A program made the translations under genes and the position numbers. Below the pieces are notes generated by a model that saw only the letters and a list, made by a program, of their open reading frames with translations, ran no database searches and was not told the origin of the DNA. DNA of 63,973 bases, counting the filler, from Klebsormidium nitens (lineage: Eukaryota > Plantae > Klebsormidiophyceae), in assembly GCA_000708835.1 (NCBI GenBank). It is 7 parts of 7 records of this genome, joined end to end, with 100 filler letters (N's around TTAATTAATTAA, not from the genome) between each part and the next. Parts side by side here need not be neighbours in the genome. Positions count along the whole stretch, not along the records: positions 1 to 29,944 come from DF237535.1; 6 more parts are not named here. One strand, written 5' to 3'. Each line of letters opens with the position of its first letter. The stretch's first letter is position 1. Below are positions 18,364-61,990 of this stretch, piece by piece.

Positions 18364-20883
18364 TCAATTAATTACGAGAGTGGGCTCATCTTTGAACTTG
18401 CTCTCGACCACCGCCATCTCCGCAACCCGGTCGAAGGTCTTGATCAGGTAGCCCAGGCGCTTCGTCTGGTTGAGGATGCAGCTGAACACTCGGATCTGTA
18501 AAAAGGGGATCAGACCGCGTAAAAGTTCGAGAGTGCCTTCTTGTAAGGCGACTCTTTGTGTGTCTTTCGCTTGACCTGCCGTTTCGCTGGTTCCAGCTTG
18601 ATGGTCTTACGCGAGATAGTAGGCTTCGGTATATATGGCATGTAATGCTTCGCCCCTGGGTCGAAATATAGATGGAATGCGTTCACTCGGCCCCTTGTGT
18701 TCGCGGTGTCGAACTCGCTCTCGCCCCCCGACTTTATGTGCACCACGATCTTAGCTTTGAGGAGCGCACTCAGAGCTATTAGTTCCGTGTTGCCTGCATA
18801 TGTGGTGGTCCTACTCATGACTCGCTTATAAGAGGGCCCGTCCTTGATGTTCGCCTCTCCGTCTACGTTGTTGCTCGCGTATTCGTTGAGAATGAGCTCG
18901 CCGCCGGTCAGGTTGCCTCTTATCCCCCCTAGAGGAGTTCTCATATGTCCGATGACGTAATCTACGGCAGCCTGTCTGAGCTTCTTGGAATTCCGGATGA
19001 TATACGTTCTGCTGAGCGTCGTCACGTCTACGCCCTTTGCCGCTAGAGATGCCAGGAGTATGCTGTGAAAGAGACAACTGCCGTCCCCAGGCACGTGCAT
19101 CAGTTTGAAAGTGGGTGGAACTTTGGAGCTGGACTTCCGCACGGGACCCCCTCTCTGATGCGACGCGCACCTATCTGAAGATGGAATCTTTACGCAGGCT
19201 GCACGCCTCTTGCAGTGTGCATCTTTGCGAGTCTTGCCCGTGCAACGTTCGCACGCCATGCTTCCTGTATTAAGCTCATGGAAATTTTCGGGCACTCGCC
19301 TGTTGGCCTCTGTGAAGCAGATAGTCGATGGGTACGAAGGTGGCCTTGGACATCTCGATCTGGTCGAAAAGGAGGTTGAGCTTGTCCGACAGGCGGAGCG
19401 GCAGCGCCGTGTCCTGGACGCAGTACCTCGCGATCTCTGCGATTCCTTCCGGCGTCCCCTGCTCGAACAGTTCGAAGAGCCGGCGGATGGGCATGTCGTT
19501 CTTGTGCTCGTTCAGGGTGACGGAGGCCACGTTTTCCAGGCTGTAACTGTCTAGCTTGTGCGACCGCTTCACGGCCTGCATGAGATCCAGGTCCAGGATC
19601 CCCTGCATGCTGACGAGGAGGAACTTGTTGAAGCCGAACGCTGCGGACTCCAGCTGTTTCTCGCTCAGCGTGCTGGGGACTCCTTTCAACCTGCCGACGT
19701 TAACAGGGACGCCGGCCCGCCGCGCAGACTTGTACAGAAAGTTCCAATCAAAGCCGTAGCCGTTCCAAGAGTAGATGACGTCCGGAGACTCATTCATCAG
19801 GAGGCGCTGCCAGGCCATGATGACCTCTCCTTCGGAGTCGTAATTCTCCACCACGACCCCTTCGATCGGAGCGCAGTCTTTGAGCGTGATCACGTGCCTC
19901 AGGTAGGGTTCTTTCTGGCCGTACACCTTGAAGGTGCTGCCGATGGTGATGGTCCGAGCTCCTTCGAAGGAACCCTCCGGAAATGAGCCGTCTGTGGTGT
20001 AGGCCTCTATGTCGAAGCTGCACTCCACCAGAGGCGGGATCTCAGCCCCTTGTCCTGCCTCCGTACGCTTGGCTCGGATGGCCGTCTGAGGGATGAGGAA
20101 CTCCAGGTCGCACGTGGACACCTGTCGAGCCTTGTCGACAGGTTTGCGTCCTCCGAGGTCGATGGTGTGCCAGCCGCATGGCAACGAGCCCGTCTCGTGA
20201 AAGAATTGGATGACTGGGGGCACGTTCGCTTCGTAGAGCGCGAATCGATGGGGGTCTCTCTTCAGCACCCACACGTTCAGTGGCTTCTTCTGTAGAGCGT
20301 ACTGGCACTGCTTCAGCGCCTTGTCCGAGGTGACTTGGAGCTTGTAGAAGAGGAAATCCTTGTCTCCATGGTAGCCTGCACGAAAAACGCACTCCTTTCA
20401 GTAATGCAAAGAGCAGGAGGGTATCTTTGATGACAACCAGGTATCGGCACCAGCACGCTAGCTTTGCCACTTTGCTCATGCGACTTCAGGCCTAGCATAG
20501 AACTTCTTGCTTCGCAGAGAGGTGACTCTTGCGATTCCTCCGTACGCCCGCCCGTTGATCGACAGGTAGATTCTTTCTGCAGTGGCGGTGGACTCCGCAT
20601 GGCCCCATCCTTCGGGAGCCTCCAGGTACAGTGCAGGGGCGAACGGTATGCGCAGGCACACGCTCTTGCCCTCCGCCGTCCGCCCGTACATGTAGATGAA
20701 GCACTGCTTAGCCGTGTCCTCCGCGTATGCAGCCCCGCCGTAATCATCAGGATGTTCGTCGTCTCGTTTCTTGTAAGATTGGATGAGGTCTATACAAGCT
20801 TTGAAGCGCTCGTGGTTGGCTGCTGCTTTGGTAGGGTCCATGTCTTCGTCTCGAGCATCGGTGGTGAGCATGAAAACCTCCAT
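18364..20883 (-). CDS. polB: Family-B DNA polymerase, viral type, spliced and 3'-truncated (N-terminal plus 3'-5' exonuclease region only; 531 aa if spliced)
   Basis: Exons 20883-20496, 20375-19300, 18495-18364. Motifs: YMYGRTAEGKSVC; KKFY-G|G-YHG across intron 1; ExoI SFDIEAY; ExoII WNGYGFDWNFL; YSLENVA; ExoIII YCVQDTALP; LHRGQQ|IRVFSCIL across intron 2. Homology ends at KFK (~18391), before the polymerase motifs. The intron 1 donor reads CT (G|CTAGGC); the intron 2 donor is GC (CAG|GCGAGT). Confidence 0.9.
18510..19259 (-). CDS. OTU-family cysteine protease/deubiquitinase with N-terminal C-x-C-x-C-x-H finger (249 aa), nested in polB intron 2
   Basis: ATG at 19259. VPGDGSCLFHSI carries the catalytic Asp/Cys, followed by YAGNTELIALS and C-terminal KHY (catalytic His). 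N-terminal CTGKTRKDAHCKRRAAC...CASHQ resembles fingers common in giant-virus proteins. The ORF lies wholly within 18496-19299. Confidence 0.9.
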   Translation of the reverse strand: MACERCTGKTRKDAHCKRRAACVKIPSSDRCASHQRGGPVRKSSSKVPPTFKLMHVPGDGSCLFHSILLASLAAKGVDVTTLSRTYIIRNSKKLRQAAVDYVIGHMRTPLGGIRGNLTGGELILNEYASNNVDGEANIKDGPSYKRVMSRTTTYAGNTELIALSALLKAKIVVHIKSGGESEFDTANTRGRVNAFHLYFDPGAKHYMPYIPKPTISRKTIKLEPAKRQVKRKTHKESPYKKALSNFYAV

Positions 20884-20920
20884 GGTCGAAATGATGGGAA
20901 TCGACGGCTCCGATCTCCTG

Positions 20921-20928
20921 TTTATATA
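20921..20928 (-). promoter_or_regulatory. TATA box of polB
   Basis: TATATAAA on the minus strand, about 38 nt upstream of the ATG at 20883. Confidence 0.5.
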
Positions 20929-20969
20929 CTGTGGTAAGATCGTCCGAAACTTTTGAACGCTTGAAGCTG

Positions 20970-21090
20970 CCCGTCTTAAATCGGACGGTAGCTAAACCTG
21001 CCCTCTGTCTTATTTCGGACGGGGGTCAGAAGTGCCCCTGTCGATTTTTCGGACAGGGATCCATGTGACCCTCGCGTAGTTTCGGACGGG
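20970..21090. repeat. Four ~34-bp tandem units, each an imperfect palindrome around TCGGACRG
   Basis: TCGGAC at 20981, 21015, 21049, 21082 (spacing 34, 34, 33). Stems CCGTC/GACGG, CCCTCTGTC/GACGGGGG and CCCTGTC/GACAGGG; the fourth is weak. An inverted half-site TCGTCCGAAA is at 20940. Confidence 0.85.
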
Positions 21091-21095
21091 TGGTG

Positions 21096-21103
21096 TATAA
21101 ATA
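21096..21103 (+). promoter_or_regulatory. TATA box of the 265-aa ORF
   Basis: TATAAATA about 43 nt upstream of the ATG at 21146. Confidence 0.5.
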
Positions 21104-21145
21104 GGATCACAGTCTCGGCACTTTCCTAAATGGAAGACTCCAAAG

Positions 21146-21943
21146 ATGGACCCCGACGCAGTAGCTTCTCTGCTAGACGTGCTGACTGCGCGCATCAGCG
21201 AACTCGAGGTTCAGACGAGGATTCTCTGCGAATTCCATACTCTCCAAGAGTGCCAGAAGCAGGGTTGCTTATTTCCTCAGCTCTTGGGGTCGAAAGCAAA
21301 GGCAGTCCGAAAGCACTATGCCGGGTCCACCAAGCAGCACGTCTTGGTGAGTTTCGATCATGGGGGCGTCGGGCTGGACCCCTGGGCGTTCGACCTCTAT
21401 GTCAGGTTCCTGAATGGCGAGTTTTTGGAAGTGACTACGATGGCGGTCAGGAATATGATATTGGCGTTGGAGGCCATGACTTCCGACGCTGGTGATAGGC
21501 CGCATTGGTACGATGTGCATAGCGGCGAGTTCAGCCCGCACACCTACGTGAGGAACGAGATAGTGTCCAGGATCGTGACGTTTCCGTTCCCTGAAGTGGT
21601 CGCTTTCGATGGTCTGCTGAGGAAATTCGTGCTCAGCTTCGATGAGGCGACTGACGTACGAGAGATTTGCTTCATGATTGAGCACATCCTGGAGTTTCTG
21701 GGCGAGCGCGTCGAAGAAGATGCTCTGGATATTTTCGAAATCGCTCCGGAGGTGGCGCGCGTGGCAAACATGCTTCTTGCGGGCGATTTCGTGAGAGGGG
21801 AGGAAGAGGACCAAATCTGGGACGAGGTGGCGTTCCAGATGCGGTTCAGAAGCTCCTCGAGCCGCCGTAGGCTGAGGGAAGAGATAGAGAGTGTGTTGAA
21901 AGCAGACTGCGGGGTAGCCTCGCATTCGGGCGGACCCGACTGA
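21146..21943 (+). CDS. Hypothetical acidic protein (265 aa) in the viral cluster
   Basis: Long intact intronless ORF with a TATA box and protein-like composition. No family recognised. Confidence 0.75.
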   Translation: MDPDAVASLLDVLTARISELEVQTRILCEFHTLQECQKQGCLFPQLLGSKAKAVRKHYAGSTKQHVLVSFDHGGVGLDPWAFDLYVRFLNGEFLEVTTMAVRNMILALEAMTSDAGDRPHWYDVHSGEFSPHTYVRNEIVSRIVTFPFPEVVAFDGLLRKFVLSFDEATDVREICFMIEHILEFLGERVEEDALDIFEIAPEVARVANMLLAGDFVRGEEEDQIWDEVAFQMRFRSSSSRRRLREEIESVLKADCGVASHSGGPD

Positions 21944-21975
21944 AGAAGCTTCTTAGGGTAGTCGCCCAACAGGAA

Positions 21976-22185
21976 TCATCGCAGAACTCTGTCCATAGCT
22001 GCTCTTAGGTCAGCCAACTCCAGCATATGAGCGTTCCCAGTACGTTGGATGGCCTGTTGCCTTGCACTTTGTATGACTTTAGTGAGATAACAAACGATGG
22101 AATCGTCCAGAGCCTTGTATTGAGCCTGGTTCAGCTTTTGACCGACCAATCCCTCCACCGCACGTTTCGAGATCTTTGCAGGCAT
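21976..22185 (-). CDS. Tail-less histone H4-like histone-fold protein (69 aa)
   Basis: Aligns by eye to the H4 core: ISKRAVEGLV ~ ITKPAIRRLA; YKALDDSIVCYLTKVIQSA ~ YEETRGVLKVFLENVIRDA; LADLRAAMDR ~ AMDVVYALKR. Confidence 0.75.
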   Translation of the reverse strand: MPAKISKRAVEGLVGQKLNQAQYKALDDSIVCYLTKVIQSARQQAIQRTGNAHMLELADLRAAMDRVLR

Positions 22186-22232
22186 CTATCGAGATATATA
22201 TGTTTCATAGAATATTTGTGTGCCTAGGGCGG
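22186..22232. promoter_or_regulatory. 47-bp bidirectional promoter between the H4-like and H3-like genes
   Basis: Divergent ATGs at 22185 (-) and 22233 (+). Contains a symmetric TATA-like run, GATATATATG (22193-22202). Confidence 0.55.
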
Positions 22233-23576
22233 ATGGCTCTGTCGCAAACTACTTTCAATAAGATCGTAAAGAGTTACGTCCCGCAGAATACGCACGTTGC
22301 GAATGGATTCTATCAGGTGCTCAGGAATCGCTTGGACGACCGCATATCGAGGACTTTGGAAGGAGCAAAGACCCTCGCTATCTATGCACATGAGGCAAAG
22401 AATGAGTCATTCACTCCTACCGACGCGTCTATGGTCGACTATCTGGCCGGAATCCAGACGCGCGAAGATCTACAACTGCGTCCCATGCACGATCCAGCCT
22501 ACAACAACTTCTTCGATCGCATTCGTCGTCGGCGAGCGAAAGCCGTTCCCAAACAGGTCCCAGCCGAGGATGCCGGGATGAAGCTCGTACCGGACGTCGA
22601 TTGGGGAGGTGGAGGTGGAGGTGGAGGTGGGGACTCCGACGGTTGGGGTGGGGGCGGTGACAATTACAATAATCACCACAATCCTGCAAAGACCGTGTCG
22701 AAAGGCGCCGGTCATGCAAAGAGCGGCTCGAGGCAGAGCACAAAGAGCGTGTCGAAAGGCGCCGGTCATGCAAAGAGCGCCTCGAGGGAGAGCACAAAGA
22801 GCGTGTCGAAAGGAGCCGGTCTTGCAAAGAGTGGATCGAGGCAGAGTGCAAAGAGCGTGTCGAAAGGCGCCAGTCATGCAAAGAGCGGCTCGAGGGAGAG
22901 CACAAAGAGCGCTTCAAAAGGAGCCGGTCTTTCAAAAGGCGCCAGTCATGCAAGGAGTGGCTCCAGAGATATCGCTACTAAACGCGCGGTCAAGAGCGTC
23001 GTCGAGATCCAGGAGCCTAGGACGCCGATCCAACGCGCACGCAAGACGGTCGTCGGCGCGATTGCGCCTGAGACTCCTCGACGCCAGACACCGGCCAGAA
23101 AGAGAACGCAGCCGGTGTGGGCCCGCGACTACGTCGATAATGGGACGATAGATCTTCGGAGGATCAAGCGGGATTTCGTGAGAGTCAGCGTACCGGAAAC
23201 TTACAACAACCTGTTCCACGCCGTCCGTATAGCTACCGGTGAACAGAAGACGGTCCAAAAACTTCGCGACCAGTGTGCGTTGCTGGCTAGCCGAGAGAAC
23301 ACATTCGAGCCCATATACTTGCAGCATATGTCAGAAGATGATCTGAAGGAACACGTCGCATCGCTGAAGAAGAGAGAGAAGGGTGGGGAGTTGGAGTTAC
23401 GGGTGTTGGCGTTCATCACTAAATTCACGTTGTTCGTCAAGGAGGGTCATGTGCTCAAAAAGTACATCCCGGAGATCTTCCCTGATATGGCCGGTCCCAG
23501 CCAGCAGAATTACCCTCAAGCGGTTCTGGAAGTCAAGAGATATTACGACGTGTTGCGACCAAAGACGAATGCTTGA
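22233..23576 (+). CDS. Histone H3-like fold - Gly linker - basic 18-aa repeats - inactive OTU-fold fusion protein (447 aa)
   Basis: H3 core similarity: TTFNKIVKSY ~ LPFQRLVREI; LEGAKTLAIYA ~ FEDTNLCAIHA; SFTPTDASMVDYLAG ~ TIMPKDIQLARRIRG. C-terminal ~130 aa follow the OTU pattern VPETYNNLFHAV...KLRDQC...GGELELRVLA...RYYDVL, with catalytic Cys replaced by Asn and His by Tyr. Confidence 0.8.
   Translation: MALSQTTFNKIVKSYVPQNTHVANGFYQVLRNRLDDRISRTLEGAKTLAIYAHEAKNESFTPTDASMVDYLAGIQTREDLQLRPMHDPAYNNFFDRIRRRRAKAVPKQVPAEDAGMKLVPDVDWGGGGGGGGGDSDGWGGGGDNYNNHHNPAKTVSKGAGHAKSGSRQSTKSVSKGAGHAKSASRESTKSVSKGAGLAKSGSRQSAKSVSKGASHAKSGSRESTKSASKGAGLSKGASHARSGSRDIATKRAVKSVVEIQEPRTPIQRARKTVVGAIAPETPRRQTPARKRTQPVWARDYVDNGTIDLRRIKRDFVRVSVPETYNNLFHAVRIATGEQKTVQKLRDQCALLASRENTFEPIYLQHMSEDDLKEHVASLKKREKGGELELRVLAFITKFTLFVKEGHVLKKYIPEIFPDMAGPSQQNYPQAVLEVKRYYDVLRPKTNA
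22689..22967 (+). repeat. 54-bp (18-aa) coding tandem repeat, 4 full plus 2 partial copies
   Basis: KTVSKGAGHAKSGSRQST / KSVSKGAGHAKSASREST / KSVSKGAGLAKSGSRQSA / KSVSKGASHAKSGSREST / KSASKGAGL / SKGASHARSGSR. Confidence 0.95.
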
Positions 23577-29944: not shown

Positions 29945-30044
29945 NNNNNNNNNNNNNNNNNNNNNNNNNNNNNNNNNNNNNNNNNNNNTTAATTAATTAA
30001 NNNNNNNNNNNNNNNNNNNNNNNNNNNNNNNNNNNNNNNNNNNN
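29945..30044. other. Artificial contig spacer (44 N + TTAATTAATTAA + 44 N)
   Basis: The same six-frame-stop linker occurs at 29989, 39677, 44194, 52854, 55807 and 62035, each flanked by 44 N. Confidence 0.97.
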
Positions 30045-31901: not shown

Positions 31902-33032
31902 CTAATTATGCAAAGTGGCTCCAAAGTCAGCCTCCATCTCTCGACAGAGGAATGGCAGATTGTAGTTGCCGAGGAAATCTCTTGTCTGTGATGGCTGGGG
32001 ATGGACCACAACACGCTCCTTTTGCTCGGTTGCCGGCGCCATCGGTGGTGTGCTCACGTTCATCCGTTTAAGTTGCTCCATCCTGTACTCATGGTCGTAT
32101 GTTGCCTGCTGCATCTTTAGCTTCTCTTGCTCAAGATTGAGATCCAATTGCCTCGTCTTATAGCCCAGCTCCGTCTGCTTCGTCTTCTCCCGTTCGATCT
32201 CTAAGCTATTGTCGTGAACATCTGACATCACGACCTCCATCGAGGTTGATAGCCTGACCGCCTTGCGCATATTGTACAAAATCTTCTCGTCGGTGAGGCT
32301 GGCTGGTGCCACAAAGATCTCGGGGTGCGTAGTGTCACCGATTGTGAGCCGCGAGAGGTTGTCCTTGATATCTCCCATGTTTCGAAAGAGCTCCTCGGCC
32401 TTTCTGTCGTCCTCAGCCTCCACCACGTGCAGCAGCTCAAAGAACAACGGCTCCTTGAAAGAAGCCTTGTGCTCCTTGTACCGTCTCCCCAGATTGGTCG
32501 TGCGCCCGAACTTGAAGAGCTTGGTCGGCCGCTGCTGGACAGCGCCGACGTAGATACACTTTTTGTTCTTGTGCAGGAGCAGCATGACCTTCTCTCTCGG
32601 GCCGATGGGTACATGGTCACGCGTGAGGGCGATGTGCGCATCCCGAATGGCAATGAAGAACCCTCGGACTGCCTTGCCACGCTCGCCCGGCGCGCACATG
32701 GCAGAGTTCTCGAATGCGTTCGTGCTCAGATAGTATTTGTCGGGCATCGAGCCTCTTTGAGCCGACCGATTTTCCCCCGTGATAAATGGTTGACCCTTCT
32801 TGTGAATGTAGTCAACATCCAGCTGAAATTGCTCCTTTAACCTGCGTGACCCATTCCCTTTTGTACTATAACCACAAAATTCCCATACAAGGTCAAAGTC
32901 GATTGGATACTTGCTCCCCTCATCGTCAAAGGCTTTGATGAAGACTCTAGCGAGATTCGCTTGGTCTGCCGAATCGAAGTTGGTGGCGACAACACGTGGG
33001 TGCGCCAAGATGGTGGCGGTCAGCTGATCCAT
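31902..33032 (-). CDS. AntA/MSV199-like DNA-binding plus T5orf172 (GIY-YIG-like) domain protein, giant-virus type (376 aa), copy 1, intact
   Basis: PIDFDLVWEFCGYSTKGNG...DY...YYLSTNAF...KAVRGFFIAI, then CIYVGAV...LFKFGRTTNLGRRYKEH, then a coiled coil EIEREKTKQ. Intronless. Confidence 0.8.
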   Translation of the reverse strand: MDQLTATILAHPRVVATNFDSADQANLARVFIKAFDDEGSKYPIDFDLVWEFCGYSTKGNGSRRLKEQFQLDVDYIHKKGQPFITGENRSAQRGSMPDKYYLSTNAFENSAMCAPGERGKAVRGFFIAIRDAHIALTRDHVPIGPREKVMLLLHKNKKCIYVGAVQQRPTKLFKFGRTTNLGRRYKEHKASFKEPLFFELLHVVEAEDDRKAEELFRNMGDIKDNLSRLTIGDTTHPEIFVAPASLTDEKILYNMRKAVRLSTSMEVVMSDVHDNSLEIEREKTKQTELGYKTRQLDLNLEQEKLKMQQATYDHEYRMEQLKRMNVSTPPMAPATEQKERVVVHPQPSQTRDFLGNYNLPFLCREMEADFGATLHN

Positions 33033-35378: not shown

Positions 35379-35675
35379 TCAGATTGAAGGGTGTGAATTT
35401 GTTTCGTCCGAGTTACGAAAATCCAAGCAAACTCTCACATAGAACATGTCTCGTGCTTCTTCACAACCTAGAGACAAGTCTTCACGTATTTTTAGTCATA
35501 CGCACCATCAAGCTTAACACAGCCTTGCTATGTAGCGACAAGTAGTGACAGCTGGTTACTGTGCTTGATTGATGCAGTAACATGTTAGTCCAGAAGATCT
35601 CCTCTCAAATAGTGCTAAAGCTCATACTGATCTTAGGCCCACGCATTCGGTCTCCCGCTACGGGTCACCAGCCTA

Positions 35676-35966
35676 CTAATCAGACAACGTGGATCGAAAG
35701 TCAGCCTCCATTTCTCGACAAAGGAACGGCAGATTATATCTGCTGAGGAAATCTCTTGTCTGTGGTGGCTGAGAATGGACCACAACACGCTCTTTTTGCT
35801 CGGTTGCCGGCGCTACTAACGGTGATGTGCTCATGTGGCTCCGTTTGAGTTGTTCCATCCTGTACTCATGGTCGTATGCTGCTTGCCTAAGATTAAGCTT
35901 CAACTCCATCTGCTTCGTCTTCTCCCGCTCGATCTCTAAGCTATCGTCGTGAGCATCTGACATCAT
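35676..35966 (-). pseudogene. AntA/T5orf172 paralog, copy 3 (3' fragment)
   Basis: HDDSLEIEREKTKQ...AYDHEYRMEQLKR...QTRDFL...LCREMEADF closely matches the C-terminus of copy 1. The 3' flank (35612-35655 vs 31838-31881) is also shared. Confidence 0.85.
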
Positions 35967-37339
35967 GATATCCGTTGAACGCCTTGATAAACACAGTTGC
36001 CAGCTTCTGATCCCCCTCGAATCTCACTGCCGTAACATTCGGGTGGGTTAAAACAGCGTCCACGTCCATTGTGATGGAATATCGAGTACTACCTTTTGAT
36101 CTGAAGTAGACCTTGAGAATCTCATGGCGGAATAAAACGCACAGTGCGTTTGTTTCGGGTTCACTGTCTATGCCGTTCTCTCATCTATTGCTGCTCTTGA
36201 AGTGTGTTTGAACCACTAAATTTATTTTCTTTGCAGCATCAGCAAAACAATGACTGTACCTTCCTCCTCCAGAGAACCCCTTTACACTGAGGCTAAGATG
36301 GAGGCGACTGTTAAAAAGAAGGAGGATGAGATGCAGGCTAAGTTGGATGATTTGCAGAAGCAGCTCGACAAGGCTAGGTATGATATATTGGCAGCAGAAC
36401 GAAAGATTCTTGCCTTGGATAGGCGCACATGCAGAGACAGTTCTCTAGAGCCCCCTCTAAGCTTTTCTTGCTGATTGTAACTCCGCGTGTCGCGCGCGCA
36501 TTTTTTCTTACTACAAGATGCCCTAGTAAAGGCACGTGCACTCAACTTTACACCAGTGATCACGTAACATGTACGCGCGCGCGACTGGCGACTGGGTTTG
36601 ACTTTTCACTCCAGGACTTAAGGCGAAAAGTTACGTAACCGGCGCGTAACTTTTAAGTACCCTCCGGAGTATACGGTATTTAAGGCCTAGGGACCGGGAC
36701 CGAGTCGCTCTCTTTTAAGTGGCTACCGAATTGATGTGGCACTACCGGGCTGGCTGGAACTTGCATCTGGAGGCTGGGGGTCCGACCCCGCCTGGGTCCT
36801 ACCCCCAGACTCCCATCTAGAACAATGCTGCAATCCTATTGGCCCTCCTAAAAGTGCCCGGTAGCTACCCTAGAGGTCTAGAAACTGTACTTAAAGAAGA
36901 GGGCCTTAAGTAGTAGGGAAATGCCTCATGACTTAAGGCCTAGGACCTTACCTCTAGCACATAAGCATATGGACTAGGCGCGAGCATGCGCGCGCGCAAT
37001 CTAGCCTCACATGCTTCAACCTAACATATCCTCTCGACCACATGGCTAATGATGAGGTGCAAACAATAGGAACCAATCACAAAAACCATCTGATGTTATA
37101 TGATAAAATGAAGCACTGTTTTTAGTCACAAGGAGAAATCGTCTATAACATCGCAACTAGTGCCTACATTATACACGTGTCTTCAAATAAAAAGATTCAG
37201 CTAGCTAAGCCACACTACCTGGTTATTGAGATGTTATGCATGTATATTAATTCCACCTGTTGAACGACGCTGAACTGTAGCAGAGAGCGGGTAACCTGCA
37301 CTTGTCGTTGAAGAGATCCAACAGTGAAGGTGCCTCTGG

Positions 37340-38418
37340 TTATTGAGGGGCTAGAACGCTCCTATATTGCTCCTGCTCAAAGTTGAGGTGAGGCACCGAT
37401 ATTGGTGTGCTCAGGCTCATCCGCTTGAGTTGCTCCATTCTGTACTCGTGATCCAATTTCGCTATCTCGGCGTCGTGGTTTAGTCTTGCCATTTCCGCAT
37501 CGTGGTCCAATGTCGCTCTCTTGGCATCATGATCCATCTTCAGTTGTTTTGCTTTCTCTTGCTCGACGGCCAACGTGTTGTCGTGCGCATCCAAGATCAC
37601 CGCCTCCGTCAAGGTCGACAGCCTAACCGCCTTGCGCATATCGTACAAGATCTTCTCTTCAGTGAGGCTGGCAGGTGCCACAATTAAAGATCTCGGTGTG
37701 AGTAGTGTCCCCGACCTTGAGCGGCGAAAGGTTGTCCTTGATGTCTCCCATGTTCCGAAAGAGCCTCGGCCTTTCTGTCGTCCTCGGCCTCCACCACGTG
37801 CAGCAGCTCAAAAAACGACGGCTCCTTGAAAGAAGCTTTATGCTATTGGTACCGTCTCCCTAGGTTGATGGTGCGCCCAAACTTGAAGAGCTTGGTCGGC
37901 CGCTGCTGAACAGCACCGACGTAGATACATTTCTTGTTGTCGTGCAGGAGCAGCATGGCCTTCTCTTTGGGGCCGATGGGGTCTCGGACACGTGTGAGGG
38001 CAATGTACGCGTCCCTGATTGCGTTGAAGAAACCTCGCACGGATCTGCCACGCTTGCCCGGCGCGCACATAGCAAAGTTCTCAAATGCATTTTGTGTTAG
38101 CATGTACCTGTCCAGTGCGCCTGACAGCTTTTCACCAGGGTTAACAGCAGGGTTAACAGCAATGTTAACCCCATGTTCATCGACTTGAATGTAGTCAGCA
38201 CCGTACTGAACTTGACAACCTTTGAGTTTGCTTAACCCACTTCCCTTTGTGCTATAACCGCAGAATCTCCAAGCGTCGTCAAAGTCGATCGCGTACTTGT
38301 TTTCCGTGTCGTCAAAAGCCTTGCCAATGAAGACCTTAGCTAATCTGGCGCGATTTGCCGGATCGAAGCTGTTAGCAAGGACATGTGGATGTGCCAAGAT
38401 GGTGTTGGTCAAATCCAT
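37340..38418 (-). pseudogene. AntA/T5orf172 paralog, copy 2 (premature stop and frameshifts)
   Basis: MDLTNTILAHPHV...AIDFDDAWRFCGYSTKG...CIYVGAVQQRPTKLFKFGRTINLGRRYQ then TAG (Glu in copy 1). The remainder continues in shifted frames to 37340. Confidence 0.88.
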
Positions 38419-42666: not shown

Positions 42667-42794
42667 ATTTCGGATACTTGCTTTCGGATGCTTCCGCTGC
42701 TATGTGGCTTTCGGATGCTCCCACTGTGATATGCCTTTCGGATGCTCCCAAGCTCTCGGACGAGACCTTCGGACGCCGATTTCTCGTGTGCCAT
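42667..42794 (-). CDS. Start of a basic repeat protein (GSIRK x3), truncated by the 461-N gap
   Basis: AATAAA-ATG start; MAHEKSASEGLVRELGSIRKAYHSGSIRKPHSSGSIRKQVSE with 27-bp repeats (TCGGA at 42684, 42711, 42738). Confidence 0.4.
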
Positions 42795-42972
42795 TTTATT
42801 CTGGACAAACTGTAAGTCAGTCTAGGAACCTGACAACCCTAAAAACCCCCCTCGCAGTAGGGATGACCATTGCCACTCATACCGTTACCACATGACTCCC
42901 TACCGTTTTCGCCAACCGTGACTCCCAGTTCGGACGCTTTTGTTATATACGCCAGGCAGAGCTGGAGAGACC

Positions 42973-44112
42973 TCAGGGAGAAATTAGAGAACTCGCTACA
43001 GTGACCCCCGCGAGGAGTCCCATCATCCATTCTACGAACTCGGGATTAGGAATCTTCCAAGCACGCTGCTCTATCGGTGTATTCCTTTCGAACTGAAGCT
43101 GCGTGGCAAGATCACCAGTCGCCCTCAACGTCAGTGCCAGAGATGCTCTGCTTCCTCCGCTACACCTAGGAGTAGCCCACCTCTTCTTGATTATATTTCG
43201 ACCCACGATTATGTCGGCCGTGCGAGAGCTGTGCACTTTCAGAGAAAGCGTCTCGTGGCCCTCGATTACTAGCTGAAGATCGATTTCATCAGATGCGAGT
43301 CCTCTTCTATCGATGGCCCATGCCCCACTATCGCTCAGCATGCCAGTACGTGGCCATGACTCTGGTTCGATGATCGCGATTATCATGCCCTCGTCGACTT
43401 CCTGCGTAGAATGTTCCGCGCATTCGATATCTACCGGCCTGAAACCACCGCTGAGATACATGAAAGCGGTGCGTACTGCATCAGGCACCACGGAGTTGCC
43501 GAGCATGTGCAACCTATGCGTGGCACTCGGGGCATCCGGTCCTTGCAGTCGCTGAGGCTCGTTACTCCAAACGAAACGCTCGTAAGCGAGCGTTGTCCAA
43601 TGATGTTCGAATCCGGGGGCCACCGCTATGCAGAACCACCTATCTCTATCATGTGGCGCTCCACACTCGGACGCTTTCAGACAAGTCCACCGTAGCTCAT
43701 ACATGCGCTTGAAGTGAAACTCGTCTGCTACTGCATCCATCGCCAGGTGAATGACTCTGGAGACGTTCTCCAAGAAGACCACTTTGGGTCTCAGTTCATC
43801 GACCAGACGGATCATCTCGTAGAAGAGTCCACTCCTGGAGTCTGCCAAGCCTTTCCTCAGTCCTGCCGATGAGAGACCCTGACAGGGGAACGAACTCAGT
43901 ATGACGTCTATGGTTCCGAGGGAACTCCCTTGCAGCTCGCAGATATCTCCATAAATAGGGCCCGTAGGAAGCTCTCCGTCCTTCATCTGTTGAGTCACCA
44001 CCGAGTGGCAATGCTTCGATATCTCGCAATACGCAACGGTCTCCACCAGTCCCGTCAATGCTCTGGTCATGCCCCCGATACCGCAGAATAAGTCGACGGC
44101 TCTCAGAACCAT
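42973..44112 (-). CDS. C5 cytosine DNA methyltransferase, prokaryotic/chlorovirus type, intronless (379 aa)
   Basis: Motif I DLFCGIGG, motif IV SFPCQG (catalytic Cys), motif VI FLENV, motif VIII PHDRDRWF, and C-terminal RWATPR...LATQLQFE...NPEFVEWMMG. Confidence 0.93.
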   Translation of the reverse strand: MVLRAVDLFCGIGGMTRALTGLVETVAYCEISKHCHSVVTQQMKDGELPTGPIYGDICELQGSSLGTIDVILSSFPCQGLSSAGLRKGLADSRSGLFYEMIRLVDELRPKVVFLENVSRVIHLAMDAVADEFHFKRMYELRWTCLKASECGAPHDRDRWFCIAVAPGFEHHWTTLAYERFVWSNEPQRLQGPDAPSATHRLHMLGNSVVPDAVRTAFMYLSGGFRPVDIECAEHSTQEVDEGMIIAIIEPESWPRTGMLSDSGAWAIDRRGLASDEIDLQLVIEGHETLSLKVHSSRTADIIVGRNIIKKRWATPRCSGGSRASLALTLRATGDLATQLQFERNTPIEQRAWKIPNPEFVEWMMGLLAGVTVASSLISP

Positions 44113-47214: not shown

Positions 47215-47960
47215 TAATCGGCCCTAGATCGCTTGAAGGTACTCTAATAGGCTTAAAACTTGTCGGCCCTAGATCGCTAGCGGCTCGCGCACATAGTCTA
47301 AGTCTGTCGGCGGTCGCACTCAAGACTTGTCGGCCCTTGTTCGCGAGCGGCTCGCGCACATAGTCTAAGTCTGTCGCCGGACCGCATACCGGCCGGACCG
47401 GAATGGACTGCGCCGAACCGCGGCCGGTCGCATCCCAACTCTTCCCGGATTATGCAAGCAAACGAACTCACCGAGTCCACGTATACAAAAGGTTCCTCGG
47501 ATTCTTCGAATAGAAGCTTCGCGACTTAGTAGAGTCTTAATAATTTAAGCGTACTAATACTACTAAGTAAAGCCCCGACTATAGGAAGTACTACTAATCA
47601 AAGGTCTCTTAATAGTAAGACTATATAGTAGTAGCAATACACTTCGGTAGTAATGCTACTAAGATAAGTCTTCTATTAAGATTCCCTAGTAGTATAATAC
47701 TATAGGGCCTATTAGGCCACGCGAACAAATGCCAATTAGTATAGTCTATCTACGTATAGTCTATATAGGAATGTATAGACTACATCTAAGATACTGACTA
47801 TAGACTGATAGCATTATGCCAATTAGTATTAGTCTATCGTAAGTATAGTCAATACCGACTGTATTGACTATACCTAAGAGTGAGATAGACTAATAGACTA
47901 AAGGCATCTAGGATTCAATAGAAAGCTGCGGCTTTTAACTAAGAATCCTATTACTTAAGG
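47215..47960. other. TpA-rich, CpA/TpG-depleted non-coding patch with short direct repeats
   Basis: Hand count for 47581-47700: about 25 TA, 4 CA+TG, 12 AT. A 29-bp repeat CGGCTCGCGCACATAGTCTAAGTCTGTCG is at 47281 and 47348. Confidence 0.7.
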
Positions 47961-55862: not shown

Positions 55863-57184
55863 TTGGACATCGTAATGTACGCTTTGTACACGTCCGTACT
55901 GAGTTTGTTGCGGAGGTCAACCCCACCGACGCACTCTTCCCAACGATGCCCGCTGAACTTGTACCATGTAGTGTTGTTTTTCTGGTCTTTTGTACTGACG
56001 TAGTCAAACTTGTACATAGAGTACACAACCTGCGCCACGTCATAATGACTGCCAGATAGTGACGTCATCAGAGCGGTTTGTAGGCTGGTCTCGTTGTACT
56101 TCTTGTACGCGTCAGGACTGTCCAACTTAGCCCAATAGTGCAGACTGCGGATGGTGTTGCCCGGTTTGAAGTCGTACCACAACTTTTCACATTCGCCAGA
56201 CTTGTACTTCGATGAGAGTTGGCTGAATGTATCCCAGACTGGCAACAAACTTTCGTCGCCGCTCTTCAAGCTTGAACCGAGTGCAAGCCAGTCAGAGCGG
56301 TTGTCCGCACGTGAGGGAGAAAGCATAGCCACAAGCTGTTGTACCTCGCCAAGAAGTACCATGTTACACTTGGGCTTAGTTTCACAAACAACCTTGGCAG
56401 CTTCAGCCTTAGCCGCCTTCTTCTCGACAAATTCGGCAACCTCCGCCTTTTTCTCCTCAAGTACAGGCAGGGTGAGCGAAGAATACTTGTTTTGAATCGA
56501 AAGGCGGTCAGTCAGATCGGGTAGTTCATCTTCGCAGTCTTCTCTTTCGCCGTCCTGACCCCACAACTTGTACGTGCAAGTGTACGCTGGACCTTTGCCA
56601 TCTTTAGTACTACCGTACAAGAGCAGCGGGTTCTTCTCGATCACCTGCGAGTCGTACATATCCTCAAAACTGTTGCGGAACGTGACGTCAGCGAAAATGT
56701 CGGAGATCGTGCCAGATTTTAACAGGTTTGTACGGATGATGTGCTGGACAGCGGGACACGTGACCAGATCGGGGAAGTGCAGGTGGAAACCGTCTTTATA
56801 CGGGTGATTCTTGTCCTTCCTCGGGGCAGGCTTCTCGAGTACGTAACACACCAAGGCTCCCTCGTCAAACTTGACGTAATTAGAGGCTTCCTTGGTGACG
56901 GCGTCATACAATGCCTTGATGTGGTCGGTAGTGTAAATACGAGTAGCCGAGTCCTGCTTGAGATCGAAATCAATGAATATAGGGGACTGACCCAAGTGCT
57001 GTTCAGTTAACGACAGGTGCACCTTCTTCTTGAGAGCCGCGTTGTACAGTGCCATAAACTCATCATATTGTTCAGATTTGATGTAGTAACTTCCCAAGAA
57101 ATCACCAGCACAACCAGTGTGCGTGAATTCAGATCCTTTTGCCACTTGAAGGGGGGCGAGGAAGTTCAGAAGCTTTGTTGCCAT
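55863..57184 (-). CDS. NCLDV/PLV-type D5 primase-helicase (AEP + PriCT-2 + start of D5_N), 3'-truncated by gap
   Basis: ATG at 57184. KGSEFTHT...GSYYI...LSLTEQ...IFIDFDLK; KDGFHLHFP; LLYGSTK; PriCT-2 RADNRSDWLALGSSLK...WDTFSQLSSKY..GECEKLW...LHYWAKLDSPDAY; WYKFSGHRW. Confidence 0.92.
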
Positions 57185-57205
57185 TTTATATACCTGGCGA
57201 CATTT

Positions 57206-57217
57206 CTTTAAGTAGTT
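57206..57217 (-). promoter_or_regulatory. Conserved upstream motif AACTACTTAAAG (instance 1)
   Basis: Identical at 58078-58089, with variants at 58479-58490 and 60769-60779. Each is about 21-37 nt upstream of a minus-strand ATG. Confidence 0.65.
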
Positions 57218-57261
57218 TTCATTTTGATTGAAAATGAAATGAAAAAAAGGATGTTTTGCGA

Positions 57262-58041
57262 TTAAAGTGCAAACTTGGCTTTTAGGTAACCCAGTGAGAG
57301 TCCGACAATTGGAGTTTGCGGACGGATGGTTCGGACAGCCCATGTGGCATAATTCTCCTCAATCTCATGTACAAACCTGCCCTTGTACTTACCCATTGGC
57401 CAAATACAATTCGAGGCTTCTGGCACATATTTCGGACGTACATCAATCTCGTCGGGGTTTGTGTCGCGGTCGATTTTCCGCATATACTCACTAATGTTGA
57501 TCGGACGGCGGGCAATCTGCGCAATCTCCTTCATCCGATTCTCGAACATCCGACGGCCGAAAGCTGCCCGACAGTCGGGACAGTAGCCTATCTCGCTCTT
57601 CCTCTGTTTCTCGCCACACTCGTTACAGCGGCGACCGTCGCGCTTTTCGCGGCAGGGGGTACAATAGTTGTCTTTGCGATTCTTGTGCGGCATACGGCAG
57701 TCTGAACAGGTCTTACCCTGGTTGTCACGAGGCAGAAATTTTCGGATACAGCAGTTCCCTACCACAAACAGTTTGGGCGGTTTGCATCGCACGTCATCGG
57801 GCATATATTCCACGTAGCAGTTCTCTTTGATCCAGTGAGTGCATTCACACTCCTCCACAAAATCAGGCTGATCAGAGGAACTGCCAAACCGTTTCATGAA
57901 ATAGTCGAACCGACCTTCTTTGTTTCCCCCGGCGTAATAGAAGTAACGGAACGATTTTGCGCCAGTCTTTAAGAAGAGGTTCTCCTTCAAAAGTTGTGCA
58001 TACACTTGCCCGGGAGACAAAATAGTGCCCGGGGGATCCAT
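57262..58041 (-). CDS. Cys-rich putative multi-zinc-binding protein with C-terminal WPMGKYKG domain (259 aa)
   Basis: CECTHWIKENC...VGNCCIRKF, several CxxC pairs, and a C-terminal MGKYKG..V.EI...Y..W pattern seen in phage/viral proteins. Confidence 0.8.
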   Translation of the reverse strand: MDPPGTILSPGQVYAQLLKENLFLKTGAKSFRYFYYAGGNKEGRFDYFMKRFGSSSDQPDFVEECECTHWIKENCYVEYMPDDVRCKPPKLFVVGNCCIRKFLPRDNQGKTCSDCRMPHKNRKDNYCTPCREKRDGRRCNECGEKQRKSEIGYCPDCRAAFGRRMFENRMKEIAQIARRPINISEYMRKIDRDTNPDEIDVRPKYVPEASNCIWPMGKYKGRFVHEIEENYATWAVRTIRPQTPIVGLSLGYLKAKFAL

Positions 58042-58118
58042 ACAACGTTGTATGTGTGAACAAAAAAAATGAATTGTCTTTAAGTAGTTTGCCTTTTGTT
58101 CAAAAAAGGGAATGTAAA

Positions 58119-58451
58119 TTACTTTTGGGAAGCGGCTGCCTTTGCTGCCCTGCGTTCCTCACGAACCTTCGCTGATCTTTCCTTTGCCTTTTGTTTCTTT
58201 TTTTCACGGTATTCGGGGTCTGTCTTATAGCGTTCATTGCTTCGCTTATTGATCTGGTCACGCTCTTCTTTGCTGAGTTTGTGAAAACGCTCGCGAGCGG
58301 CAGTCCGAACTTTTTCTGCATACTCTGTGTCTTCCTTGTACTTCTTGGTTTGTTTCGATGCGGTCAGATTCTGTCCGACCTTCTCCATGTGTTCAGCAAT
58401 TTGGGTCAGCGCAAATGCTTTTATTGTAGCGGTCAACATTTCGATGTCCAT
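58119..58451 (-). CDS. Small basic helical protein (110 aa)
   Basis: ATG preceded by a promoter-motif variant. K/R/E-rich, with ERYKTDPEYREKKK. Confidence 0.7.
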   Translation of the reverse strand: MDIEMLTATIKAFALTQIAEHMEKVGQNLTASKQTKKYKEDTEYAEKVRTAARERFHKLSKEERDQINKRSNERYKTDPEYREKKKQKAKERSAKVREERRAAKAAASQK

Positions 58452-58530
58452 TCTTACTATTTATATTAGCTGTCATTTCTTTAAATGGTTTTCTTTTGTC
58501 ATAAAATTAAAAGTTTTTGGCGCGAGCACT

Positions 58531-58770
58531 TCACACGTCTGGCTCTGATGCGGATGCTGCTGCCTTCTTTTTAGCGTAGTAATTGTGCATGTAATTCTTG
58601 ACCCTCGCTCTACAGTCTGGGTCATTATGGTACTTTTCGCGATTCCGAGTTCGCTGCCTTTCGCGCATGATCTCTTTTCTCTCCTCAGGAATATTCTTAT
58701 AGTAGAACTTGCAACACAAAGCGTGCATAGCTTTGTATTCGTCAATAGAAATATCCTTCGTCTGTTCCAT
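58531..58770 (-). CDS. Small basic protein (79 aa)
   Basis: REKYHNDPDCRARVK resembles the motif of the neighbouring ORF. Tightly packed on the same strand. Confidence 0.6.
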   Translation of the reverse strand: MEQTKDISIDEYKAMHALCCKFYYKNIPEERKEIMRERQRTRNREKYHNDPDCRARVKNYMHNYYAKKKAAASASEPDV

Positions 58771-58844
58771 TTAGTTTTAATGAGATAATTTGTGCGGGAA
58801 ATGAACCACAACTTTATATATCTTCCATATAGTAAAGAGGAAAT

Positions 58845-60110
58845 ATGCCAAGGACACGCACGTCAAGAAATGCTGGTAAAGTTATCAATCTCGATGACGA
58901 ATCGGAACCTTCGAGTGCTGCGGCGGCGGTAGGTAGAGCGACGAGAAGCAAAGCACCCGCACCTGCTCCACCACCAGCACCACCACCTGCTGACCCGAAG
59001 GTAAACAAGCCTGCACCTAAACCCAGGAGAGCAAGTAAAGCTTCGAAAGGTAAAGAGAAGGTTGTGACGATTGAGGATACGACTCGGCAGATTGATGCAA
59101 ACGCCAACTTAGCTCCCGAAACGCAATCAGATTATGTGCGCAAGACTAATTTTATCAGTCGCTGTCTCAAGGAGAAGAACATTCAGAAGCTTGTAAATCA
59201 GCCAGACAAGGTGATTGAGTATATACGAAACAGGTACACGAACATGAATTCACGCACTGGTTATGCTACAGCGTTTTGCTCGCTTCTAAAACATACAACT
59301 TTGCAGGTGACAGATGCGGTGCAACAGAAGTTCTTTGATTTCATGATGGAATCAGCAAATGCCGTTCAGGAAATTAACAAAGACAACGTGCACAAGGTTG
59401 ATGAAATCATGCTGAACGGCAAACGGATTGTGTGGAAAGACATTCTTAATCTTGAGGCAAAGATGCGCAAAGAACAATATGCGAGCAAAGACCATCTATT
59501 AGTGGCAATGTTTTGCTTAATTAGCCCGAGGCGTTTGCGCGATTATTGCAAGATGGAGGTATTCAAAAGCAAGGCTGAATATGATCGAGCAGGCGATGTC
59601 AATAAGATGTGGGTCGATACTCGGAACAAATGTGCTCACATGAGCATCTCTGATTTCAAAACAGCAAAAGATTATGGAACCTACACTGCAAAAATCACTG
59701 GAGTCCTATATGAGATCATCAAAACTAGTTTAGCGGAGCACAAGCGTCGTTGGTTATTCCAAAACACAAACGCCGACCCCTATACAAGCGGGACTTTCTC
59801 TAAGTTACTAACTGATGCTTTCAAAAAGAACCTACATGTTTCTTGTGGCTGTAATTCAATTCGTCACTTGAAAATTACAGACTTCAACAAGTCTAATCCG
59901 TCGCTTAGAGAACGGGAAAAGCTAGCCTTGGAGATGGGGAACTCGGTCCAGATGCAAGGGTACTACAACCAGCCGGACACCGATGCAACCAGAGCTGCAA
60001 AAGAGGCAGAGAAGAACGCAAAGTTAGCTGAAATCAAAAAGCTGCGGGAGCAGATTGATTCTAGTATAAAAAAGATTAGTCAGTTGAGCCAGGAACTCGC
60101 TGAATTGTAA
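58845..60110 (+). CDS. Tyrosine recombinase/integrase, PLV/NCLDV type (421 aa)
   Basis: Catalytic pattern SPRRLRDY (R), FKTAKDYG (K), NSIRHLKIT (R-H), MGNSVQMQGYY (Y), with a Pro-rich basic N-terminal extension. Confidence 0.88.
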   Translation: MPRTRTSRNAGKVINLDDESEPSSAAAAVGRATRSKAPAPAPPPAPPPADPKVNKPAPKPRRASKASKGKEKVVTIEDTTRQIDANANLAPETQSDYVRKTNFISRCLKEKNIQKLVNQPDKVIEYIRNRYTNMNSRTGYATAFCSLLKHTTLQVTDAVQQKFFDFMMESANAVQEINKDNVHKVDEIMLNGKRIVWKDILNLEAKMRKEQYASKDHLLVAMFCLISPRRLRDYCKMEVFKSKAEYDRAGDVNKMWVDTRNKCAHMSISDFKTAKDYGTYTAKITGVLYEIIKTSLAEHKRRWLFQNTNADPYTSGTFSKLLTDAFKKNLHVSCGCNSIRHLKITDFNKSNPSLREREKLALEMGNSVQMQGYYNQPDTDATRAAKEAEKNAKLAEIKKLREQIDSSIKKISQLSQELAEL

Positions 60111-60738
60111 GCAGTTCTTTGTGAGCTCTTTTCATGTGACGTGGGATAGAACCTTTTCGAAGTTCTTTGTTACACTCTGGGCAATTTGCCAAAGGATTTT
60201 TGTGGACAATTTTCAAATGGTTGATGCACGAATCTCTGCGTAGTTCCTTATCACATTCGGGACACTTGACAATTTCTGCTCTTCTTGCTGCTACTCTTTC
60301 TTTATTTTTCTCATAATAAGCTTTTCCAGTTGTTTTTGCTTTTTCCAACTGATCTTCCCTGTTTTGTTGATACCATCTTTTCATGTTGGCAGATCTTTTC
60401 TCCTTGTTTTCCTCCCGATATTCTTTTTGTGTTCTACCAGGCACAACAATGTTTAATGTAGCATTTAACAGACGAATCCAATAAGCTTCACGCTGCCTCA
60501 GTTCATCAATAGAAGTACAAGGGAAGAATTCAACCAGTTCAAGTTTTATCCCTAGCCATTTTGTATCAAGCTGATTGATTGCTTGATATATCAGCCTGTT
60601 CATCTTTTCTGGTACTTTAGAAGCCTCTACGTGCCTACTTCTTCGTTGAGACAGAAAGGGTCTGGTCGTGCTTCCAACATAAACTCCGTGACCAGGCACA
60701 TCAATTCTGTAGATTTTCGACAGCTGATAGTCTGGCAT
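60076..60738 (-). CDS. GIY-YIG endonuclease with two C-terminal C2H2-like fingers (220 aa)
   Basis: KIYRI...YVGST...RRSRH...LVEFFPC...ELRQREAYWI...LN..PGRTQKEY; fingers CPECDKELRRDSCINHLKIVH and CPECNKELRKGSIPRHMKRAH. Confidence 0.9.
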   Translation of the reverse strand: MPDYQLSKIYRIDVPGHGVYVGSTTRPFLSQRRSRHVEASKVPEKMNRLIYQAINQLDTKWLGIKLELVEFFPCTSIDELRQREAYWIRLLNATLNIVVPGRTQKEYREENKEKRSANMKRWYQQNREDQLEKAKTTGKAYYEKNKERVAARRAEIVKCPECDKELRRDSCINHLKIVHKNPLANCPECNKELRKGSIPRHMKRAHKELLTIQRVPGSTD

Positions 60739-60793
60739 CTTGTCTTTTTATATCTTTTGTTGTCTTCCCTTTAAGTATTAACAAACGCTCACC

Positions 60794-61406
60794 TTATTTT
60801 TTGGTTCTCTTGGGGGTGACCTTAGTTTTCCCCTTGCCCTTGTCTGGGGACACCTCCTTGTCCTCCACGCGAGGCTCGGACGGTCCTGCTTCGTCCTCGA
60901 ATGTCTCACGAACAGGAGACATCTCCTGCATGCGCTGGTACTCCTCCTCCAAACGGCGGCGCTGGTACTCCTCCTCCTGTGCTGCGGGGTCTTCGATCTC
61001 GTCATTCCCTTCCTGCTGAGGTTGGGGGTCAGGGCTCACGCTGCGACGGATTCTGTTTACTGCCCTCTGGAAAATGGTTGGTTGGGGTTCGGGTTCAGGC
61101 TGGGGTTCAAGCTGGGGTTCAGGCTGGGGTTGAGGCTGGGGTTGGAGATCGGGCTGGGGTTCCGGAGACGCTGATGCCCTTCCACGTCCACCACGCCCTC
61201 CACCCCCGCCTCTGCCGCCACCGCCGCCTGGAGCAGGAGGATTCCCAGGAGCAGGAGGATTTTCGGGAGCAGGAGGATTCTTAGAGGAGCAAAGTGCATT
61301 ATATAGGGCTTCCAAACCACTTTTTGACAGAAGAAGTGGCTGCTGTTGCAGTCAAAGCTGTACGCCTCAAACTTACGATCACGTTTAGAGATCCACGTGG
61401 AGGCAT
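60794..61406 (-). CDS. Disordered RGG / PQE-repeat / basic-tail protein, probably two exons (171 aa)
   Basis: Exon 1 61406-61377 (MPPRGSLNVI), donor GTAAGT, 97-nt intron, acceptor CTTTGCTCCTCTAAG, exon 2 61279-60794 in phase 0. Contains NPPAP x3, GGRGGRGR, (Q/E)P repeats and KGKGKTKVTPKRTKK. Confidence 0.6.
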
Positions 61407-61480
61407 TGCCGACGGTTTCGGTAGTTACGATACTCTACCCGCTGTTACCGTCATAAATTGCAAGAAAGTCCGTCGACGCT

Positions 61481-61834
61481 CTACCAGTCAACCGAGATTG
61501 GATGCCTCCCTTCTGTTACTTTTATTTTTCGCGTAATAGTTGCATATGACTGATTCGGATTCTCAGGTATTGACGTAATAGAGATATTGAGACATAACCA
61601 ATTATCACTTTCTTTGGTTATGTCATATTTCCAATCAAAAAGAGATAGATCTTCTGAATCGTAGTACACAACCCCAGTCATCGATTTGTGAGATCCGTTA
61701 TCACTGTTCATATATTCAACCAAATCCCCATAGAGTATTATGAGACGATCGCAATCTACTGAACCCAGAAGTTTTGCTTCGGCATACGCCGTTAAAAGAA
61801 TAATGTCGCTCATGAGTTTCTCATAATCTATCAT
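61481..61834 (-). CDS. Hypothetical protein (117 aa)
   Basis: ATG-initiated ORF on the same strand as its neighbours in the dense element. No family recognised. Confidence 0.55.
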   Translation of the reverse strand: MIDYEKLMSDIILLTAYAEAKLLGSVDCDRLIILYGDLVEYMNSDNGSHKSMTGVVYYDSEDLSLFDWKYDITKESDNWLCLNISITSIPENPNQSYATITRKIKVTEGRHPISVDW

Positions 61835-61939
61835 TTTTCTATGTAATGAGAAAAAAAAAGAGTAAAGAATCCGCGAAAGATAAAAGGGAGCCGTAGAATA
61901 TGATGTAATTTAATGTATTATTTCTTATTATTTTTGAGT

Positions 61940-61990
61940 AAGTGGGGAGAGAGAAGTGGGGAGAGAGAAGTGGGGAGGGAGAAGTGGGGA
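61940..61990. repeat. 14-bp G-rich tandem repeat (AAGTGGGGAGAGAG)x3.6, running into the gap
   Basis: Units start at 61940, 61954, 61968 and 61982. Four GGGG tracts. Confidence 0.9.

Follow-up and report, generated by a model that had tools for sequence, protein, structure and literature searches.

What does a short word that is repeated at nearly even intervals do between two divergent genes of a viral insert? In the Klebsormidium nitens insert studied here, an array of TCGGAC words filled the spacer that separated an orphan gene from a broken polB of giant-virus type. The word was found on the + strand at 20981, 21015, 21049 and 21082 (spacing 34, 34 and 33), as an earlier note on this DNA had claimed. 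The inverted copy named in that note was TCGGAC on the − strand at 20942-20947, which made a fifth copy of the array. The whole stretch analysed (63,973 nt, hereafter the window) consisted of pieces joined by N44-TTAATTAATTAA-N44 linkers at 29945, 39633, 44150, 52810, 55763 and 61991, and neighbours across a linker need not be genomic neighbours. The array lay in the first piece (1-29944). The spacer contained the following features:

20884..21145, no strand: spacer between the divergent genes, 262 bp between the two ATGs, 50% GC
20921..20928, − strand: left TATA box TATATAAA, 45 nt ahead of the ATG of polB
20941..20951, − strand: AGTTTCGGACG, the outer core copy oriented towards polB, with the TATA box 12 nt on
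20971..20988, + strand: unit 1, core TCGGAC at 20981, arms CCGTC/GACGG of 5 bp, 8-nt loop
21005..21022, + strand: unit 2, core at 21015, CTGTC/GACGG with 3 bp Watson-Crick, 8-nt loop
21036..21058, + strand: unit 3, core at 21049, arms CCCTGTC/GACAGGG of 7 bp, 9-nt loop
21078..21088, + strand: unit 4, which is also the other outer core copy, AGTTTCGGACG, with the right TATA box 7 nt on
21096..21103, + strand: right TATA box TATAAATA, 50 nt before the orphan-gene ATG

The array was real. Fifteen hexamer chains with at least four copies at a period of 20-60 (±1) were found in the window; the other 14 all lay inside a coding 54-bp repeat, and the array was the sole non-coding one. No such chain was obtained in 100 order-2 Markov simulations of the window. 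In addition, DNA contigs of the same sample spanned 20656-22723 with 0 differences (the window itself may derive from these runs), which indicated that the array was not an assembly slip. Equal frequency of the word elsewhere, which the earlier note had named as fatal to its reading, was not observed across the rest of the window.

The true core was longer than the hexamer, a point overlooked earlier. It extended over about 9-11 bp, WTTCGGACG, and the copies in order were AATCGGACGG, TTTCGGACGG, TTTCGGACAG and TTTCGGACGG, with TTTCGGACGA as the inverted copy. The two outer copies were mirror images with 11/11 bp identical, which had also been overlooked. All 3 occurrences of TTCGGAYG in the 29.9-kb first contig were within the array. 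TTTCGGACGG itself may be an abundant host repeat. The 6-bp core was perfect in all four units; outside it, the units had 6-14 of 28 letters in common (13-14 of 28 for neighbouring units). The core contained two CpGs, and CpG was not depleted in the spacer (o/e 1.17). Among the literature matches listed for the word itself, only primer-type ones were obtained, and the Rfam search gave no family, with a single match at E 0.73. The plant motifs KnRAV (CCTG) and RY were rejected because they did not match the core (PMC10272232). The SAND protein DEAF1 is reported to bind TTCG half-sites 6-11 nt apart (PMC4274154); this was a resemblance only.

The description of the array as four phased palindromes was overstated. 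When arms were counted as Watson-Crick pairs anchored on GAC, the perfect arms were 5, 3, 7 and 2 bp and the loops were 8, 8, 9 and 11 nt, so the claim that each unit is a hairpin was not confirmed. The pairing of unit 2 was uncompensated (CTGTC/GACGG) and exceeded 3 bp only via G-T pairs, and unit 4 was not a real palindrome (2-bp arms, loop of 11). Arms of at least 5 bp were present at 2 of the 47 TCGGAC sites in the window, units 1 and 3 only. The pair of changes between these units that had been read as compensatory, CCGTC/GACGG versus CTGTC/GACAG, was indeed present. However, both changes were CpG transitions (CpG to TpG and CpG to CpA), and such transitions can arise without selection on pairing. 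The array folded somewhat better than shuffled sequences (z −2.0; 4/200), so the arms carry some weight; the same held for the whole spacer (z −3.1; 3/200). In the case of the phasing, 34 bp corresponded to 3.24 helical turns, which placed the sites at offsets of 86, 171 and 223 degrees, and the last spacing was 33. The TCGGAC sites were periodic and helical phasing was absent. The proposal of nucleosome or tetrasome positioning found no support in the A/T content, where no 10.5-bp periodicity was observed and 40% of shuffles reached the same value.

A different symmetry, not described before, was found in the spacer as a whole. Its score against its own reverse complement was 102, compared to 63.9 ± 13.7 for shuffles (1/200). 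This symmetry was restricted to the ends and short arms, without a long near-perfect palindrome. Both ends were mirror images of each other, in which a gap of 12 or 7 nt separated AGTTTCGGACG from a TATA box, with AGGA and then the ATG coming next, and the three inner units occupied the middle. The TATA boxes said to flank the array were confirmed on the − and + strands, and they were 2 of just 19 TATAWAW in the window. Judged by its frequency in the window, TATAWAW would lie no more than 25 nt beyond both of the outer cores with a probability of about 1e-5, a post hoc value. An initiator-type TCATTTC lay 36 nt past the first base of the left TATA box. After the right TATA box, no initiator of the strict TCATTTC-type form was found, and an out-of-frame ATG lay 34 nt from this box, ahead of the orphan-gene start. 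The richest A/T 20-mer in the spacer was the TATA box itself (15/20), and there was no other AT-rich tract. The spacer was thus better described as two mirror-image promoters with five shared copies of a word than as four palindromes. The part of the earlier reading that placed activator sites between divergent TATA boxes fitted this anatomy, whereas the part that invoked an origin, an hr element or iterons rested on weak palindromes and phasing.

The genes around the spacer were as follows:

18390..20883, − strand: broken giant-virus-type family B DNA polymerase gene (polB), first exon starting at 20883
18510..19259, − strand: OTU-family protease ORF of 249 aa (Pfam PF02338, E 1.2e-8), inside the second polB intron
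21146..21943, + strand: orphan ORF of 265 aa, with a frameshift close to the 3' end when compared with its relatives
22233..23576, + strand: downstream gene, also in the insert, of about 447 aa and with its own TATA at 22195

In polB, the first intron was broken: the splice donor was absent at about 20495, the acceptor lay before 20375, and the site held 100 letters here compared to 267 in a diverged copy. The exonuclease exon ended at 19300 and was followed by an 804-nt GC-AG intron (19299-18496). A short third exon began at 18495, and its start matched what comes after RGQ in the relatives that lack introns; the gene stopped soon after, and the polymerase domain was missing. The exon ends that matched intron-free relatives bore AG acceptors and a GC donor. 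These spliceosomal-type signals indicated that polB was a nuclear polymerase II gene. The closest full-length relatives were about 40% identical. The best named viral structure matches of the predicted fold were Heterosigma akashiwo virus, klosneuvirus and EhV-86, and polB is Nucleocytoviricota-like as judged by this model.

The OTU protease ORF was complete and took up 750 of the 804 nt of the GC-AG intron on the same strand as polB. Its ATG was 40 nt past the intron donor, and its stop was 14 nt short of the intron end. A diverged contig of the same sample likewise continued from the third polB exon through the OTU gene, which indicated that the nesting was not unique to this copy. An ORF nested in a polB intron in this way is possibly more unusual than the array.

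On the spacer's far side, the orphan gene belonged to a family of 4-5 known proteins, with four clear relatives at 61-88% identity. The 265-aa protein gave no Pfam or PHROGs match, its Atlas scores were under 0.9, and the AlphaFold pLDDT was 38. No initiator gene was identified in family searches of the insert, in which the 265-aa protein had no family match, and no recombinase was found in the contig of the array. The downstream gene had no TCGGAC/T upstream. It encoded a conserved N-terminal domain of 100 aa that was histone-fold-like by eye and a basic repeat region (the 54-bp tandem), and its C-terminal domain matched OTU weakly (E 0.069). The histone-fold pair assumed earlier received no confirmation from Pfam or PDB sequence searches. 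A K. nitens protein record, KFL_005860030, was identical to both ORFs right of the array. This gene model fused the orphan ORF and the downstream gene, whose relatives were separate proteins, and in the model of the paralogue KFL_005560010 the fusion was to a RING domain instead; the two fusions may both be artefacts of annotation.

The spacer was then compared with other loci. We take the K. flaccidum of the report on viral inserts to be K. nitens. Phycodnavirus-like inserts were reported there for the genus Klebsormidium (PMC5294986). A diverged contig of the same sample carried the same head-to-head pair of polB and orphan gene, with letters that matched the record KFL_005560010 (P0124). 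Between the anchors there were 327 letters in the diverged copy and 347 here. The spacers were nearly equal in length, with about 242 bp predicted for the diverged one, and the difference of 20 bp was not a multiple of 34. The diverged spacer gave no alignment at 80%, and neither did a 295-nt coding stretch. Scans of viral contigs, whether by polB alone, by the orphan family, by the downstream gene or by a degenerate pattern, found no homologous locus, and the single metagenome match, L023, was rejected as one because it was a 25-residue match in a bacterial contig. We also collected 80 distant algal-virus polB loci at 34-39% identity, many of them near-duplicates, and excluded 4 without an upstream ORF. 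In 49 of the remaining 76, polB was head-to-head with its neighbour, and all divergent gaps were at most 115 bp. None of the 76 had at least three TCGGAY or a periodic hexamer upstream of polB. From these comparisons, the head-to-head layout is common and the array lineage-specific.

The word also recurred in one other place in the window:

42668..42950, + strand: second word cluster, no palindromes, adjoining an assembly gap 3' of a C5 methylase gene

This cluster, 22 kb from the array along the joined stretch and in a different piece, contained six TCGGAY within 105 bp (42668-42780; spacing 14, 27, 27, 18 and 13), and at 42928-42950 TTCGGACG was followed by 7 nt and TATATA. No arm was longer than 2 bp. 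The core and TATA pointed into the methylase gene in the antisense direction, and no ORF followed them. The window thus held 2 clusters of at least five TCGGAY in 160 bp; in 300 simulations one cluster was obtained once and two never, a result that overstates the independence of the clusters because three copies of the second form a 27-bp tandem. Upstream of the other genes of the polB insert (22233, 19259), no TCGGAY core was found, which indicated that the core was not a general promoter word of the virus.

The C5 methylase (42668-44112 region) was a stand-alone enzyme of bacterial/viral type with 379 aa, and its relatives in viral contigs reached just 25-39% identity over most of the match. 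Together with the second cluster at the assembly gap, the methylase could mark where an element ends. We rejected the idea that the cluster was an enhancer in the LTR of a methylase-bearing Gypsy element. The known K. nitens Gypsy element is reported to have Dnmt3 inside Pol (PMC5890265), and the enzyme here was not of that type; a linker separated it from the Gypsy piece, and there was no second LTR copy.

Periodic TCGGAC was also searched for in viral contigs, where at least 120 loci were found. Among the 120 listed, 15 were uncovered by an ORF of 100 codons. Of these, 1 had TATA on both sides, in an AT-rich 12-bp tandem, and none of the loci listed was related to the proteins of the insert. 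In 6 of 20 hand-picked loci, phage TCGGAC arrays lay at the 3' end of a primase-helicase gene or in initiator genes. In L154, L176, L209, L198, L002 and L021, the arrays came directly after a primase-helicase gene (AAA_25, D5_N) or lay inside initiator genes. These phage arrays are likely origin iterons, although the loci were chosen by the motif itself with no control word.

Other pieces of the window had features of their own. The separate piece at 55863-61990 resembled a Polinton-like virus or small DNA virus, with an AEP-PriCT-2 primase, a GIY-YIG nuclease and a 421-aa ORF with tyrosine-recombinase-like motifs by eye and no family match. Its genes had a different promoter word, (C/T)TTAAAG, 12-16 nt before the TATA box. 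One piece carried three diverged copies of a T5orf172-containing gene family (31902-33032, about 35588-36080 and 37400-38418). The AT-rich region at 47540-47930 adjoined Gypsy remains; short TAGT/ACTA repeats were numerous in it, and it contained an imperfect inverted repeat of 45 nt.

The element is a cis-regulatory one in a decaying viral insert. We consider it probable, at roughly 60%, that the spacer is a two-way promoter for RNA polymerase II in which activator sites are clustered, similar to a chlorovirus early promoter. Host TBP and polymerase II would start outward transcription at both TATA boxes, and one activator common to polB and the orphan gene would bind the five copies of WTTCGGACG, so that both genes might be turned on jointly at an early stage of infection. 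Each TATA box would have an outer core acting beside it, and the three inner units would supply extra sites. The inner units probably arose by local duplication of 34 bp, and in their weak left arms a dimer may have degenerate second half-sites. The putative activator is slightly more likely to come from the host than from the virus, because phycodnaviruses except coccolithoviruses are described as using the host polymerase for early genes (PMC5294985). With two CpGs in the core, silencing by host methylation would be expected. In K. nitens, enrichment for methylation is reported for viral genes (10.1101/2025.04.15.648976). The mirror symmetry and the core-TATA-ATG geometry at both spacer ends argued for the promoter, and in the second cluster the core recurred without a palindrome, freely spaced and armless. 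Regular spacing and partial palindromes, which are unneeded in a simple promoter, argued against it.

These two features are what would be expected if the array were also, or mainly, a replication origin, where an initiator dimer would bind imperfect palindromes between divergent promoters by polB. The position resembled that of HSV oriL between UL29 and UL30 (PMC10541914). The regular period, the arms in units 1 and 3, the spacer fold (z −3.1; 3/200) and the six phage arrays by primase-helicase or initiator genes pointed in the same direction. However, 2 of the 4 units were not palindromes, the loops were unequal and the units had diverged. In addition, the spacer was 50% GC with no AT-rich tract besides the TATA box (15/20), the second cluster was armless, and no initiator gene was identified in the family searches; the phage loci had been picked by the motif itself with no control word and had no protein in common with the insert. 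We regard an origin as unlikely on balance. A combination is quite unlikely, in which the spacer would serve as both origin and two-way early promoter, similar to oriL or hrs, in a giant virus of streptophyte algae that depends on the nucleus and is as yet undescribed. The CpG half-sites would then be bound by an initiator of the virus, perhaps the orphan protein, and host methylation would stop both polymerase expression and replication.

An explanation with less function is that each gene has a single core in a TATA promoter of the ordinary two-way kind, and that the inner units are a neutral, decaying 34-bp tandem duplication. Neighbouring units agreed in their flanks beyond the core (13-14/28 letters), the diverged copy differed in length and sequence, and the insert was decaying, as seen from the broken polB and the frameshifted orphan gene. 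On the other hand, the core was perfect in four units while the flanks were at 6-14/28, which pointed to selection on the core, and a CpG-rich core should decay first, yet the CpG o/e of the spacer was 1.17. We consider this explanation decidedly unlikely. Sites of the lox/FRT family are 34 bp long, with 13-bp arms and 8-nt spacers. The length of 34 bp and the 8-nt spacers in units 1 and 2 would suit recombinase sites of this type, and a possible histone-like gene 1 kb away would suit nucleosome or tetrasome positioning signals. However, the arms were far below 13 bp, the spacers were unequal and the contig had no recombinase, while the 10.5-bp periodicity was missing and the histone fold was unconfirmed in the Pfam/PDB sequence search. 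The arm and periodicity counts largely refuted both variants, and they are very improbable.

Streptophyte algae are related to land plants. Streptophyte-algal viruses have been reported from genome inserts (PMC5294986), and among the literature matches listed no description of their control signals was found. As a promoter, the polB/orphan spacer follows a known design, and its word and layout are new. The 262-bp spacer and the 9-bp word would provide a test piece for the factor that starts infection, host or viral, and for silencing by methylation. The finding would matter more if the spacer also started replication.

Several known systems were compared with the spacer. In yeast GAL1-GAL10, divergent polymerase II promoters have a common activating array. 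The spacer was similar in having several sites for one putative factor between two outward TATA promoters, and each of the two start codons had an outward TATA/initiator core at a suitable distance; the spacer differed in its viral origin and in the regular spacing of the sites. Plasmid and phage iteron origins consist of near-identical direct repeats in helical phase, with an adjacent initiator gene and an AT-rich unwinding element. The array, in contrast, had a period of 3.24 turns, and only a core of 6-10 bp was common to its units. Herpes oriL has a long near-perfect palindrome with an AT-rich centre. Unlike it, the spacer had no such palindrome and no identified origin-binding protein, and its partner gene was an orphan. 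The likeness to HSV oriL was a symmetric element between divergent genes, one of which is a family B polymerase (PMC10541914). Baculovirus hrs are bound by a viral transactivator. They are both origin and enhancer, and highly conserved, AT-rich and dispersed units with imperfect palindromes of at least 24 bp (about 24-30 bp) are described (PMC4535591). Like the hrs, the array was a short run of evenly spaced, partly palindromic units, and its word recurred at a second place. However, its units were diverged, with arms of 2-7 bp and 50% GC, and were tied to two TATA boxes; of dispersed arrays of the hr type, the window held one further core cluster, which was palindrome-free.

By analogy, the chlorovirus immediate-early promoter is the closest described system, one that the spacer may work like without being a member. 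Chlorovirus immediate-early genes are described with ATGACAA/AATGACA and TATAAAT within 150 bp of the ATG and use the host polymerase (PMC5294985). Here too, a gene of an algal giant virus had a short upstream word and a TATA box less than 150 bp from the ATG, and this was found on both sides, with TATA 45 and 50 nt from the ATG and the core 7-12 nt further up. Unlike in chlorovirus promoters, the word was GC-richer and contained CpG, ATGACAA was absent from the spacer, and a five-copy periodic array was common to two mirror-image promoters.
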